From contig JBJKUL010000001.1 in assembly GCA_045563135.1 (NCBI GenBank), positions 598,650 through 662,649 on the forward strand: 64,000 bases of DNA. Direction: 5' to 3'. Positions 50,414 to 54,902 of the stretch are shown in pieces. Origin of the DNA: Candidatus Actinomarina sp. (GTDB lineage: Bacteria > Actinomycetota > Acidimicrobiia > Actinomarinales > Actinomarinaceae). Position 1 is the stretch's first letter. Every line of letters begins with the position of its first letter. The position numbers were made by a program, and so were the translations under genes. The notes under the pieces are model-generated. The model saw only the letters and a program-made list of their open reading frames with translations. It ran no database searches and had not been told where the DNA came from.

Positions 50414-51310
50414 ATGGAAATACTTAGAAATAAAGATAGCGATTTTGCAGAGATAGTTGATTGGAAGTATGAACCAAAATTCGAACCAATTAATACTGAA
50501 TATGGGGAATTAAATATTCATTATATTGATGAAGGATCGGAAAATGCCAAAACAGTTTTACTACTTCATGGTGAACCTACCTGGGGATATTTATATCGAA
50601 AATTTGTAGATCCATTAGTAGCCAACGGTTTGCGAGTAATAGTTCCTGATTTACCTGGTTTCGGGAAGTCAGATAAGCTTTCTGAACGCGATGGTTACAC
50701 TTATGAAAAATATGTTGATTGGATGAACATTTGGTTGAATAACCTAAATTTAAATCAGGTAACTCTTTTTGGTCAAGACTGGGGTGGGCTGATTGGCTTA
50801 AGGTTAGTTGTAAAAAATCAAGAAAGATTTAGCAGTGTAGTTGTTTCTAATACTGGATTACCAACCGGTGAAAGACCCCTTGGTGAGGCCTTTGAATCTT
50901 GGCGAAATTATTCTCAGACTGTGGAGAATTTTCACATCGGAGGAATAGTTAAAGGTGGAAGTGAAAGTGAATTAGATCAATTAACTATAGATGCATATAA
51001 TGCACCATTTCCTAATGATTCGTTCAAGGAAGCGGCAAGACAATTTCCATTACTGGTACCAGATAGTATTAAAAATCCTAGTTACGCGTATAACGTAGAG
51101 GCATGGAAAGAATTAAAAAAATGGGAAAAACCTTTCTTGTGTGCTTTTAGTGATAAAGATCATATCTTCAAAGGTGTAGAAAATTCATTCATCAAACACA
51201 TACCTGGAGCAGATGGAATGAACCATGTTGTAATCAAAGATGCTGGACACTTTCTGCAAGAGGATAAACCTCAAGAGTGTGTTGAAGCCATATTAAGCGT
51301 TATTGATTAA
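50414..51310 (+). CDS. Haloalkane dehalogenase-like alpha/beta hydrolase (HLD-I type)
   Basis: It has LLLHGEPTWGYLYRKF, PDLPGFGKSDK, the nucleophile elbow GQDWGG, and a C-terminal GHFLQED, as in DhlA-type dehalogenases. Confidence 0.8.
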   Translation: MEILRNKDSDFAEIVDWKYEPKFEPINTEYGELNIHYIDEGSENAKTVLLLHGEPTWGYLYRKFVDPLVANGLRVIVPDLPGFGKSDKLSERDGYTYEKYVDWMNIWLNNLNLNQVTLFGQDWGGLIGLRLVVKNQERFSSVVVSNTGLPTGERPLGEAFESWRNYSQTVENFHIGGIVKGGSESELDQLTIDAYNAPFPNDSFKEAARQFPLLVPDSIKNPSYAYNVEAWKELKKWEKPFLCAFSDKDHIFKGVENSFIKHIPGADGMNHVVIKDAGHFLQEDKPQECVEAILSVID

Positions 51311-51996
51311 CCAGCAGTCCCCCAACTGTTAAAACCAAGAAATTTCTGAGTTCCAGGTAGATACATACTTTGACTAACTTTTAATTCCAATTCACTGTTA
51401 TTGATTAACTTAAGGATATCTCTGTTTACATGACACCCTCCTGATATTTTAGGATAAAAAAACTCAATGAAATTCTGAAAGTTAGCAACTCTAGTGTCAG
51501 ATGATAAGCCATGTTCTGCAAAGTAAAATTTACCAGAAGACTTTAGCACTCGAGAAATTTCATTAAGAGCAATTTCCGGATTGGGTATGGAACATAGAGA
51601 GTAAGTACTTACAACAGTATCAAAACTATTATCTTCAAATGGTAATTCTTCAGCACTGCCTATCTGTAAATCTATAGATATATCTACAGATTTTGCATTT
51701 TCATAAGCAAGAACATGTAATTCCTGAGAAGGATCTATACCGTAGATTTTTTCAACATTTTCACCATTATATAACTTAAGATTTACACCAGATCCAAAAC
51801 CAATTTCAAGCACCTTGCCATACGCATTTGGTATTATTTTCTTCTTTTGGATTTGTATAGGTTTAGAACTACATGTCATATTTATAAGATGAGGAAGAAT
51901 TCTTTTTTCATAAAACTTTTTACTTAATAGCCGAATTATGGGAAATATAAAAAAAAGTAAAAAATTAGAAATTAAAAAAAATAAATATTTTTTCAT
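51307..51996 (-). CDS. Class I SAM-dependent methyltransferase with an N-terminal membrane anchor
   Basis: It has SAM motif I VLEIGFGSGVNL, the post-I/II region, and an N-terminal hydrophobic helix. Confidence 0.75.
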   Translation of the reverse strand: MKKYLFFLISNFLLFFIFPIIRLLSKKFYEKRILPHLINMTCSSKPIQIQKKKIIPNAYGKVLEIGFGSGVNLKLYNGENVEKIYGIDPSQELHVLAYENAKSVDISIDLQIGSAEELPFEDNSFDTVVSTYSLCSIPNPEIALNEISRVLKSSGKFYFAEHGLSSDTRVANFQNFIEFFYPKISGGCHVNRDILKLINNSELELKVSQSMYLPGTQKFLGFNSWGTAG

Positions 51997-52018
51997 AAAT
52001 AGAGATTATACATTATAT

Positions 52019-52525
52019 CTAGTGCCCACCTCTAGGCACACCTCCATATTTCATCCTTGTATCCCCCATATAGGCAATACGTTCATCGGTTTCCATTGTT
52101 TTGCAATCTACAACTTCACCAACATAGAGAGTGTGTGTCCCGTAATCGTGTACATTCTTTTTTCTAAGTTCAAACCATACAAGAGCATTATCAAATATTG
52201 GAACATTGTTTTCAGTGAGAGTTATGGGTTCCTTGTTTAAAAAGCCCTCTGTGTGTACTGCAGGTTTTGAAAATTTAACAAATACCTTTGTGTACTTTTC
52301 AGAAAATAAATTAATCGTAAAATAGTCACTATCTGACATTAATTTATGAGTTACGCTCTTATTGTCAATACCTACAGCTATAAGCAATGGGTTCATGTTT
52401 ATTTGAGTAATCCAACTTGCAGTCATTCCATTATATGAATTTTTACTACCTGAGCCAATAATTCCTAATGGGCTTGGAATCTTCCATGTAGCAACATTTA
52501 GCTCTTCATCTGAGACTTTGCTCAT
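52019..52525 (-). CDS. Flavin reductase-like (FMN-binding split barrel) protein
   Basis: It is 168 aa with MTASWITQINMNPLLIAVGI typical of the flavin reductase domain. Its start overlaps the radical SAM stop (ATGA). Confidence 0.75.
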   Translation of the reverse strand: MSKVSDEELNVATWKIPSPLGIIGSGSKNSYNGMTASWITQINMNPLLIAVGIDNKSVTHKLMSDSDYFTINLFSEKYTKVFVKFSKPAVHTEGFLNKEPITLTENNVPIFDNALVWFELRKKNVHDYGTHTLYVGEVVDCKTMETDERIAYMGDTRMKYGGVPRGGH

Positions 52526-53865
52526 ATTAAGGCCTTGTTTGATTTTATTCTCTCTAATTGAATCTTATTAGGCTCAGCACAACAGAACCATGTTTCTGAA
52601 AGTTTAGGAACTTTTCTTTTCTTATAGTTTCCAGATTTAAGAAGATTCTGCTTAGAATATTGTTCTATAATTTTAACTATTCCAAGATACTGTGCGTACT
52701 CATCCAATGATTCATTATGAAGAACATAAGTGAATAAATCATTTTGTAGTTTATCCATATCTGGAGACATATATCTCCATGAATATGAAAAAGATGATGG
52801 ATCATATTCCTCTAAGTAGTTATTAATATCGGGATCATTAAGTATTAAAGAGTTTTTAGGGACAAGTAATTTAATAGTAAGTTGAATTGGGTCTACCGTT
52901 TCTCTGAGTCTATATTCTTCAATCAACTTAATAATATTTGGTAAGTCTTGTTTTTCTGTCCACGGGGAAAAGGGCATCCAGGTTGGCCTTATGTCAATAC
53001 TGTGTGAAAGAGAAAACTCAACAGCACTATTTAAATCAAGTGATGAATGGTTTTTCTTTAAAATATTGAGGACCTTGTCATTTGTTGTCTCGAATGCTGA
53101 AATAACAAAAAGCATATTAAGGTTTTTTAGCTCTTTAAAATAATCAGGATATTTTAAAATATGTTCCACTTTAATAGTTGAATCATATGTTAGATCTGGA
53201 TGTTCAATATTTAGAGCCTCCAATATTTTCAAGGCATGTTTAGGTCCATTGAAAAAATCTGGATCATTAAATGAGATGTGCTTTGCACCGGCTTCAACCT
53301 GATTAGAGACATCTTTTAAGATTTTATCTGTACCAAATGTTTTGAATGTTCCATTAAATTCAATAGGTACCGGACAGTGGGTACATTCATGTTTACATCC
53401 ATAGGTAGTTTCAACTGAGCCTGCTATTAGATTATTTGAGCCATCAACAATATGAGAGTAGTCAGTTATAGAAGGAAGAACAGTTCTATCAGGAACGGAG
53501 TGCTTGAAAGAATACTCCTCATTGAGTTGGACATTTAATAAGGATTCCAAATCTGCATTATCTAAATTTTGAATTATTTCAAAGTTTTGAAACATTTCTT
53601 TAAATACTTTTGCATAGAGGCCAAAAACAAATAACTTATTTGGTAAATCTTTGTTGCGTAAGTATTCTTCTGCAAGAACAGAAGCTGTATGCATCGAAGC
53701 GTAAACACCCAAAGCATCATAATTTTTTAAATTTAGAGTTTTTTCTTCAACGGAATAATCAACAATGTCGATTTCGTTTGTACCATTATTTAGTTTTTGA
53801 TACAGCTCTGAAATTATTTTTGGCTGTTTTCCAAGATCATAAAAAGATAGGAGAAGAATCTTCAA
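52522..53865 (-). CDS. Radical SAM protein with B12-binding-like N-domain and C-terminal CCAEP tail
   Basis: It has the CxxxCxxC cluster GCKHECTHCP and a C-terminus ...SETWFCCAEPNKIQLER. I recall an NCBI family named for a CUAEP/CCAEP tail (Sec or Cys). This is the Cys form. Confidence 0.8.
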   Translation of the reverse strand: MKILLLSFYDLGKQPKIISELYQKLNNGTNEIDIVDYSVEEKTLNLKNYDALGVYASMHTASVLAEEYLRNKDLPNKLFVFGLYAKVFKEMFQNFEIIQNLDNADLESLLNVQLNEEYSFKHSVPDRTVLPSITDYSHIVDGSNNLIAGSVETTYGCKHECTHCPVPIEFNGTFKTFGTDKILKDVSNQVEAGAKHISFNDPDFFNGPKHALKILEALNIEHPDLTYDSTIKVEHILKYPDYFKELKNLNMLFVISAFETTNDKVLNILKKNHSSLDLNSAVEFSLSHSIDIRPTWMPFSPWTEKQDLPNIIKLIEEYRLRETVDPIQLTIKLLVPKNSLILNDPDINNYLEEYDPSSFSYSWRYMSPDMDKLQNDLFTYVLHNESLDEYAQYLGIVKIIEQYSKQNLLKSGNYKKRKVPKLSETWFCCAEPNKIQLERIKSNKALI

Positions 53866-54902
53866 TTTATTTCTTTGATAAATTCTAATGTTGGAATATC
53901 AATTGGAAGTGAGAGTGATAACTCTGTTACCTTAGAATCTTTCCAATAATTTAATTTTTCTTCAATGTCTTTTTTAGTACCAACAAGGGTTAAATCTCTA
54001 AGTAAATCATCAGGAAATAGGTCCTCAGCTTCTTGTTTCTTCCCACTTAAATATAAATTCTGGATTTCAGTAGCAATTTCCTCATATCCATACTCACACA
54101 TAAGATTGAAATAGAAATTTTTATCTTTAGCACCCATACCTCCAACATATAAAGTATATGTTGTTCTTGCTGGCTTCAAGTATTCATCAACTTCATGTTC
54201 TTCGCATAGTCTTGCAAAAACTGTGGCAACGATATTAAATTCTTTATCTTTGTTGGGTACTCCTGATTTTTCAAATCCTTTTTTAAGATAGTCTTTAAAA
54301 ACCATATCTCCTTTTGTTGGCGAATACATGAATGGCAACCAACCATCAGCAACTTCAGCAGATAACTCGATATTTTTTGGCCCAATAGCTGCAAGATAAA
54401 TAGGAATATTATTTCTTAGTGGTGGCTCAATTAGTTTAAGTGGCTTGCCAAGATTTAAGGAATCGGGACCATTGTAAGGAAGGTTATAAAATTCTCCATC
54501 AAAAACTACCTTGTTTTCTCTTTGAAATATTTCTCTAATTATCTTTATATACTCTCTTGTTCTAGATAGTGGTTTTGAATATGGTTGCCCATGCCATCCC
54601 TCTACAACTTGCGGACCAGATACTCCCAGTCCAAGTCTAAATCTCCCATTAGAAAGCTTATCCAGGGTTATAGCGGTCATTGCAGTCATAGCAGGGGTTC
54701 TTCCTGGTATCTGCATAATTCCTGAACCGATATTTATATTTTTAGTGATTGCAGAGAAATAAGATAGTGGTGTAACAGCATCATAACCATAAGCCTCAGC
54801 AGTCCATATACATGAAAACCCTAAATCATCTAATTTACTGATAAGTTCGTGATCATCCGAAATATGGGGACCAAAATATCCAACGTTTATGCTTAAATCC
54901 AT
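53862..54902 (-). CDS. LLM class flavin/F420-dependent oxidoreductase
   Basis: It has a luciferase-like TIM barrel (FSCIWTAEAYGYDA, RFRLGLGVSGPQVVEGWHG). Its stop overlaps the radical SAM start. Confidence 0.8.
   Translation of the reverse strand: MDLSINVGYFGPHISDDHELISKLDDLGFSCIWTAEAYGYDAVTPLSYFSAITKNINIGSGIMQIPGRTPAMTAMTAITLDKLSNGRFRLGLGVSGPQVVEGWHGQPYSKPLSRTREYIKIIREIFQRENKVVFDGEFYNLPYNGPDSLNLGKPLKLIEPPLRNNIPIYLAAIGPKNIELSAEVADGWLPFMYSPTKGDMVFKDYLKKGFEKSGVPNKDKEFNIVATVFARLCEEHEVDEYLKPARTTYTLYVGGMGAKDKNFYFNLMCEYGYEEIATEIQNLYLSGKKQEAEDLFPDDLLRDLTLVGTKKDIEEKLNYWKDSKVTELSLSLPIDIPTLEFIKEIN

Follow-up and report, generated by a model that had tools for sequence, protein, structure and literature searches.

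ArsL is a radical S-adenosylmethionine (SAM) enzyme with an RCCLKC tail (NF040542), which forms the C-As bond of arsinothricin and is encoded in the arsQML system. It converts SAM into methylthioadenosine (MTA) and a 3-amino-3-carboxypropyl (ACP) radical, and As(III) is bound on its cysteine-rich tail (10.1101/2024.02.01.577332, 10.64898/2026.04.29.721666). For the CUAEP/CCAEP-tail radical SAM (seleno)proteins (NF040546), we found a single mention in the literature, as uncharacterised (Haft 2022, bioRxiv 10.1101/2022.07.06.499078). The stretch of DNA analysed here (the window) comprises 64,000 nucleotides of a Candidatus Actinomarina sp. genome (contig JBJKUL010000001.1, positions 598,650 to 662,649 of the forward strand), and encodes a predicted member of the latter family, which we designate rSAM. 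The host genome is 1.08 Mb and 94% complete.

The region around rSAM is a composite and not one pathway. rSAM is an accessory gene within an otherwise genus-wide operon, and the ATP-grasp L-amino-acid ligase that is its recurrent partner is encoded 68 kb from it in the same genome. We hold this combination of a composite operon and a ligase partnership to be highly probable. The best overall explanation, in which the region is composite and rSAM and the ligase form a split module, has in our estimate a probability of about 0.6.

An accessory gene in a genus-wide operon

The genes of the co-directional run, taken from the list of open reading frames (ORFs), and the features within them are as follows (window coordinates):

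51307-51996, minus strand: methyltransferase, 229 aa
51997-52018, minus strand: spacer between flavin reductase and methyltransferase, 22 nt, atataatgtataatctctattt
52019-52525, minus strand: flavin reductase, 168 aa
52522-53865, minus strand: rSAM, 447 aa, TTG start
52570-52590, minus strand: codons of the WFCCAEP tail of rSAM (residues 426-432; C428-C429), located by translation
53374-53397, minus strand: codons of the CX3CX2C [4Fe-4S]/SAM motif of rSAM, CKHECTHC (C157, C161, C164), located by translation
53862-54902, minus strand: luciferase-like monooxygenase (LLM), 346 aa
54915-55427, minus strand: MTHFS (5-formyltetrahydrofolate cyclo-ligase), first gene of the run and core in the genus

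The genus survey covered 61 Actinomarina genomes, 11 of them high-quality. LLM was found in 55 of the 61, including all 11 high-quality genomes, and rSAM in 19. rSAM, where present, always sits between LLM and the flavin reductase gene; the flanks read at 10 other Actinomarina loci gave the order LLM-rSAM-flavin reductase every time, and the 4-nt LLM-rSAM junction agrees by coordinates in 19/19 rSAM-positive genomes. These genomes form two subclades, with about 40% sequence divergence between them. Since both the gene order and the LLM-rSAM junction recur across the genus, the arrangement is not due to chance. In the 7 inspected rSAM-less loci (L105-L111), LLM directly adjoins the flavin reductase gene, the two being no more than 8 nt apart or overlapping by no more than 8 nt, and the methyltransferase is retained along with both (7/7). 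The genus-wide operon is composed of (i) MTHFS, (ii) an F420-type LLM, (iii) the flavin-reductase protein, (iv) sometimes a SelL-like redoxin, and (v) usually the membrane methyltransferase. rSAM is an accessory gene found in about a third of the species, exactly between LLM and the flavin reductase gene.

An earlier interpretation based on the nucleotide sequence alone (the sequence-only reading) had taken LLM, rSAM, flavin reductase and methyltransferase for a self-contained four-gene pathway, a view that it would give up if the four genes failed to co-occur elsewhere. LLM occurs in almost three times as many genomes as rSAM, the three other genes persist without rSAM, and in the 84 loci outside the genus, the neighbourhood of CCAEP/CUAEP homologues conserves none of them. 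The four-gene unit is thus refuted on that reading's own terms. Its description of the locus has held: the four minus-strand genes are real, and both 4-nt start/stop overlaps and the 22-nt gap are found in the sequence where it had placed them, and LLM and the flavin reductase gene are a tightly coupled pair conserved within the genus. The inventory was incomplete, as the fifth co-directional gene, MTHFS, had been overlooked.

Read from the minus strand, the LLM stop codon overlaps the rSAM start codon as TTGA (AAT-TGA over TTG-AAG, 53862-53865), and the rSAM stop codon overlaps the flavin reductase start codon as ATGA (ATA-TGA over ATG-AGC, 52522-52525). MTHFS lies upstream of LLM on the same strand, at a distance of 12 nt. 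The 22-nt spacer contains two overlapping TATAAT hexamers directly 5' of the methyltransferase ATG and has no Shine-Dalgarno sequence; it may be an internal promoter from which a leaderless or near-leaderless methyltransferase mRNA is transcribed. Rfam and promoter/terminator scans of the region from 49.5 to 57 kb gave nothing over background.

The ligase partner and other neighbours

The neighbours at 85 homologous rSAM loci were clustered, the clusters were annotated, and the ligase was recounted by tblastn. The recurrent partner of rSAM is an ATP-grasp L-amino-acid ligase (ATP-grasp_4 + LAL_C2) directly upstream on the same strand. It lies within 300 nt of rSAM on that strand at 38/85 loci (tblastn), which span Acidimicrobiia, Thermoleophilia, Chloroflexota and Acidobacteriota, and a gene for an NfuA-like Fe-S carrier is divergent from the ligase in 36 of these 38 loci. 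The closest named relatives of the ligase are the dipeptide-antibiotic ligases BacD and DdaF, and PylC. In the genome of the window, the NfuA/ligase pair is arranged as it is elsewhere, outside the window and 68 kb from rSAM:

C1:719538-720170: NfuA-like gene, divergent from the ligase
C1:720209-721393: ATP-grasp L-amino-acid ligase, sole homologue in the genome

The gene order at this site is NfuA, ligase, TPK-like gene. The same order was found in two other rSAM-positive genomes, and in five rSAM-less genomes NfuA and TPK flank an empty site from which the ligase is cleanly missing. In the genus, 24/61 genomes carry the ligase, including 18 of the 19 rSAM-positive ones. The only rSAM-positive genome without it (G024) is counted as an assembly gap at the ligase locus, because NfuA is missing there too. 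In all 6 genus genomes that carry the ligase and appear rSAM-negative, the LLM locus is absent or cut by a contig end. Ligase and rSAM are present or absent together in the genus, each as a clean single-gene insertion or deletion at its own conserved site. At the class level, the ligase was found in 5/5 rSAM-positive versus 2/11 rSAM-negative genomes (Fisher p = 0.005), and in two of these rSAM-positive genomes it is present yet not adjacent to rSAM. The co-variation within the genus and the adjacency across phyla together make the rSAM-ligase partnership well supported.

Other genes recur beside rSAM in some lineages. A DrrA-type ABC ATPase gene, in most loci accompanied by ABC-2 permease genes, lies downstream on the same strand at 19/85 loci, mostly in Acidimicrobiia (for example L026, L021, L034, L043 and L067), which hints that the product may be exported. 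A SaoD/DsrE-family gene lies just downstream of rSAM in convergent orientation at six loci (L061, L071, L079, L082, L088 and L089); the cluster representative (L079) scores 194 bits against NF040913, above the cut-off of 152, and Haft ties this family to a selenium-dependent organometallic system. An HLD-type alpha/beta hydrolase gene, a divergent neighbour in 13 Acidimicrobiia loci, was considered as a partner of rSAM and rejected, because it is also present in 5 of the 7 inspected rSAM-less Actinomarina loci and is therefore independent of rSAM. In three related Chloroflexota loci (L050, L058 and L064), an LLM gene (about 385 aa) lies about 3.5 kb upstream of rSAM, together with a PF01613-like flavin reductase gene and just upstream of NfuA-ligase-rSAM; the Actinomarina arrangement may be faintly echoed here, or the resemblance may be fortuitous.

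Enzymes of the host operon

In the profile search, LLM matched the F420-type model TIGR03559 (Rv3520c subfamily) with 412.4 bits, above the cut-off of 335, whereas the FMN-type models SsuD, RutA and SfnG gave at most 25 bits. The closest solved relatives of LLM in a PDB search are the F420-dependent Mer enzymes (methylene-tetrahydromethanopterin reductases). The genes cofH (475.6 bits) and cofD (268.8 bits) pass their respective cut-offs in the same genome, which is predicted to make F420. Enzymes of the F420 type take their hydride from F420H2 and do not require a flavin reductase. The sequence-only reading had assigned LLM and the flavin reductase to a standard two-component flavin-dependent monooxygenase; the TIGR03559 match, the low FMN-type scores, the Mer relatives and the encoded cofH and cofD make an FMN monooxygenase of this kind unlikely. 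The flavin reductase itself matches PF01613 (104 bits) as a split-barrel FMN protein, and its relatives in the PDB are flavoredoxin and FeR-type FMN proteins.

The methyltransferase is a generic class I SAM methyltransferase (PF08241, Methyltransf_11, 80 bits), and all specific NCBIfam models scored far under their cut-offs on it. Its N-terminus is strongly hydrophobic (Kyte-Doolittle hydropathy of 2.3 over residues 5-23), in agreement with the membrane anchor that had been proposed for it. One to three genes (redoxin, ASST, SBF) part it from the flavin reductase gene in L015-L019, L025, L106, L109, L111 and L113, and the rSAM-positive locus L112 has no methyltransferase at that site. In other Actinomarina species, the slot between these two genes variably holds genes for a SelL-related redoxin (178 aa), an arylsulfotransferase-like protein (about 505 aa) and a BASS-type transporter (L015:4846-6468; L016:8696-11786; L018:3324-6442; L109:6828-9931). 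The slot looks like a small flexible hotspot within an otherwise syntenic region. The SBF transporter of these relatives was also considered as an Acr3 arsenite pump and rejected: by NCBIfam it is BASS-type, with no Acr3 match.

MTHFS matches TIGR02727 with 96.7 bits, above the cut-off of 84.9, as well as PF01812, and occupies the equivalent position in every Actinomarina locus compared. The Mer-like LLM, which lies beside MTHFS, was considered as a substitute for a missing methylene-tetrahydrofolate (methylene-THF) reductase. In the 94% complete genome of the window (G000), neither MetF/MTHFR (PF02219) nor MetE (PF01717) nor a MetH-sized ORF was found; since MetE and a MetH-sized ORF are missing as well, there is no evident demand for methyl-THF, and the proposal was dropped. 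These absences suggest that the organism is apparently unable to convert homocysteine to methionine, yet it retains MTHFS and several SAM-dependent enzymes.

The radical SAM protein and its relation to known systems

The top profile for rSAM is NF040546, with 376.8 bits, below the cut-off of 500. Residues 3-437 align to positions 1-466 of 468 of the model, tail included, so that the earlier placement of rSAM in this function-less family stands. The ArsL model NF040542 is second, with 204.7 bits against a cut-off of 450, and aligns to the core only (residues 121-378). Scores against NF040546 are 371-377 bits for Actinomarina and 418-491 bits for other Acidimicrobiia, and reach 555-683 bits, which pass the cut-off, in Chloroflexota, Thermoleophilia and Planctomycetota. 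Family members score up to 328 bits against the ArsL model over nearly their full length. By these profiles, the window rSAM appears as the divergent end of one continuous CUAEP/CCAEP family, and its nearest characterised relative is ArsL.

The cluster motif GCKHECTHCP and the WFCCAEP tail, both named by the sequence-only reading, are present in the translation, in which the tail reads ...SETWFCCAEPNK. The protein has only five cysteine residues (C157, C161, C164, C428 and C429). None of 48 homologues departs from the CX3CX2C motif or from the tail residues E424, W426, C428, C429, E431 and P432; residue 430 is either Ala or Ser, and rSAM keeps 46/46 of the family-invariant residues. A TGA codon, encoding selenocysteine (Sec), replaces the second tail cysteine, with the AEP motif continuing in frame, at 25/85 homologous loci, so that the tail TGA suspected in orthologues exists. 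These WFC-TGA-AEP loci are L033, L036, L038, L049, L051, L053, L055, L059, L065, L068, L069, L073-L075, L079, L085-L087, L091, L095, L097, L099, L101, L102 and L104. ORF callers end the Sec-form proteins about 15-20 residues too soon.

The AF2 model of rSAM (48 homologues) has a pLDDT of 92 and a pTM of 0.90. Its top Foldseek match is AprD4 (TM-score 0.66), followed by OxsB, MgmA and TsrM, at sequence identities of 10-16%, and the match extends from the N-terminal Rossmann-like domain through the radical SAM core. A Pfam scan of rSAM gave no B12-binding (PF02310) match, and a PDB sequence search gave only a marginal match to MgmA. The proposed B12-binding-like N-terminal domain is therefore supported by the predicted fold and not by Pfam.

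In the explanation that we prefer, rSAM and the ligase would act as a split two-gene module making a small molecule of amino-acid origin. On the model of ArsL, (i) the reduced [4Fe-4S] cluster of rSAM would cleave SAM at the Cγ-S bond; (ii) the ACP group would pass to a soft atom, such as S, Se or As, bound to Cys428-Cys429, or to Cys-Sec in other members; (iii) the ligase would couple the resulting γ-substituted 2-aminobutyrate to another amino acid to give a dipeptide; and (iv) NfuA would deliver or restore the cluster. Chemistry of the ArsL type at the tail is the tentative part of this scheme, and we consider it possible at best. rSAM was most likely embedded between LLM and the flavin reductase gene for co-expression, in a genome that has hardly any intergenic DNA, and the flavin reductase is at best a possible electron donor to it.

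Several points weigh against this explanation. The nominal Fisher values at the genus level (1e-9 to 1e-13) overstate independence, because the rSAM-positive genomes fall in two subclades, and perhaps two or three gain/loss events underlie the co-variation. The assembly of the NfuA locus is confirmed for five rSAM-less genomes only. G035 and G039, both Acidimicrobiia, carry a ligase orthologue (46-54% identity) and no detectable rSAM; the ligase can thus persist alone. rSAM is strictly coupled in translation to both LLM and the flavin reductase gene across 19 genomes, which may go beyond mere co-expression. The tail of rSAM has two thiols versus three in ArsL. A C-terminal Cys-Sec pair is the classic redox-shuttling arm, as in thioredoxin reductase (GCUG), and AprD4, the closest match by structure, works as a conventional 5'-deoxyadenosyl-radical enzyme. 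Because the window rSAM is below the NCBI cut-off and lies on a long, compositionally biased (AT-rich) branch, its function could have drifted.

Some of these points are those on which the strongest alternative is built. In this alternative, rSAM would be a conventional 5'-deoxyadenosyl-radical enzyme that acts on the ligase product or on another amino-acid-derived substrate, with its tail as a redox arm or H-atom donor, for example in a dehydration, an epimerisation or a rearrangement. AprD4 is itself a 5'-deoxyadenosyl-radical enzyme that bears a B12 domain and is cobalamin-free; redox shuttles are known to be built with adjacent Cys and Sec residues on a flexible C-terminal tail, substitution by Sec usually signals redox catalysis, and a SelL-related redoxin gene lies 3' of the flavin reductase gene in several Actinomarina relatives. 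However, the nearest characterised relative by sequence is ArsL, with near-full-length alignment in family members; the equivalent Cys-rich tail of ArsL binds the substrate atom, Haft links CU motifs to organometallic systems, and a SaoD/DsrE-family gene adjoins rSAM in six loci. We judge the conventional enzyme rather unlikely.

Unlikely as well is a local recruitment, in which the flavin-reductase protein would reduce the [4Fe-4S] cluster or the tail disulfide of rSAM and LLM would process the product, with the ligase acting downstream. This proposal draws on the departure of rSAM from its ancestral site behind the ligase and on its coupling to LLM and the flavin reductase gene, which was kept through the divergence of the two subclades, as well as on the electron-transfer flavoredoxins among the solved relatives of the flavin reductase and on the three Chloroflexota loci described above. 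However, LLM and the flavin reductase gene are equally tight without rSAM, overlaps are the default mode of insertion in a streamlined 1-Mb genome, and the Chloroflexota case is one lineage in phyla in which the LLM family is very common.

The self-contained pathway, in which rSAM would contribute a radical step, LLM with the flavin reductase a two-component flavin oxygenation, and the methyltransferase a methylation, is largely refuted by the genus survey and is very improbable. The overlaps on both sides of rSAM, the 22-nt gap before the methyltransferase and the gene order shared by the other Actinomarina loci would agree with it. By contrast, its three other genes are kept in the rSAM-less loci and LLM far outnumbers rSAM across the genus, these three are not conserved as neighbours outside it, many relatives have one to three unrelated genes between the methyltransferase and the others, the methyltransferase is not there in L112, and LLM is of the F420 type and not of the FMN type. 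An arsenic-specific enzyme isofunctional with ArsL, in an arsinothricin-like pathway with the adjacent methyltransferase as ArsM, has the slightest chance of all: the second-best match of rSAM to the ArsL model, the weak match of the methyltransferase to ArsM-type models (57 bits) and the resemblance of the gene pair to arsL-arsM (PMC8552651) are outweighed by scores of 205 versus the ArsL cut-off of 450 and 57 versus the ArsM cut-off of 510, by the missing third cysteine of RCCLKC, by the presence of the methyltransferase in every inspected rSAM-less locus, by the lack of any arsenic gene near rSAM homologues in the neighbour clustering and the Pfam/NCBIfam scans, by the BASS-type transporter without an Acr3 match, and by the absence of a true ArsL over cut-off from 401 Actinomycetota genomes.

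The four-gene set should consequently not be annotated or pursued as one pathway. What remains is a delimited two-gene module, composed of an ArsL-like radical SAM protein with a Cys-Cys or Cys-Sec tail and an L-amino-acid ligase, together with an NfuA-type carrier, and this module is widespread in Actinomycetota, Chloroflexota and other phyla. Actinomarina provides independent genetic evidence for the partnership, with genes 68 kb apart that are gained and lost together. Candidatus Actinomarina is among the most abundant marine actinobacteria, and an accessory gene that persists in so common and streamlined an ocean bacterium probably has ecological relevance. If the ArsL-like chemistry is true, ACP-radical chemistry would extend beyond arsenic. 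A bolder version, which we regard as improbable, would make the CCAEP/CUAEP proteins a second, far more widespread canonical-fold class generating the ACP radical and forming C-S, C-Se or C-metalloid bonds on a tail-borne atom; in Actinomarina, they would belong to a strain-variable split module that, with the distant ligase, produces a dipeptide or antimetabolite and has the co-translated flavin-reductase protein as its dedicated electron donor.

Comparison with described systems places the locus as follows. (i) Two-component flavin monooxygenases (SsuD/SsuE-like, HpaBC reductases) share with it a luciferase-like TIM-barrel gene coupled to a PF01613 gene; by contrast, the LLM here belongs to an F420-dependent clade. 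(ii) Class B (cobalamin-domain) radical SAM enzymes, especially AprD4, resemble rSAM in the predicted fold over both domains, but rSAM has no Pfam B12 match and an identity of only 10-16% to them, and AprD4 itself binds no cobalamin. (iii) ArsL, the nearest by profile score among characterised proteins, resembles rSAM in its canonical CX3CX2C motif and in having two adjacent cysteines close to the C-terminus, and we infer that the two tails are homologous; the tails differ in that rSAM has two Cys (or Cys-Sec in other members) in WFCCAEP and ArsL has three in RCCLKC, and the partners differ in that they are an ATP-grasp ligase and NfuA here and ArsM/ArsQ in the case of ArsL. (iv) The NF040546 family aligns with rSAM over the full length and has in common with it the CX3CX2C motif, an ExWFC[C/U]AEP tail that is invariant, and the architecture of N-terminal domain and core; the window gene differs in that it scores only 377 bits (<500), is on a long AT-rich branch, and lies away from the usual ligase and NfuA neighbours, embedded in an unrelated core operon.

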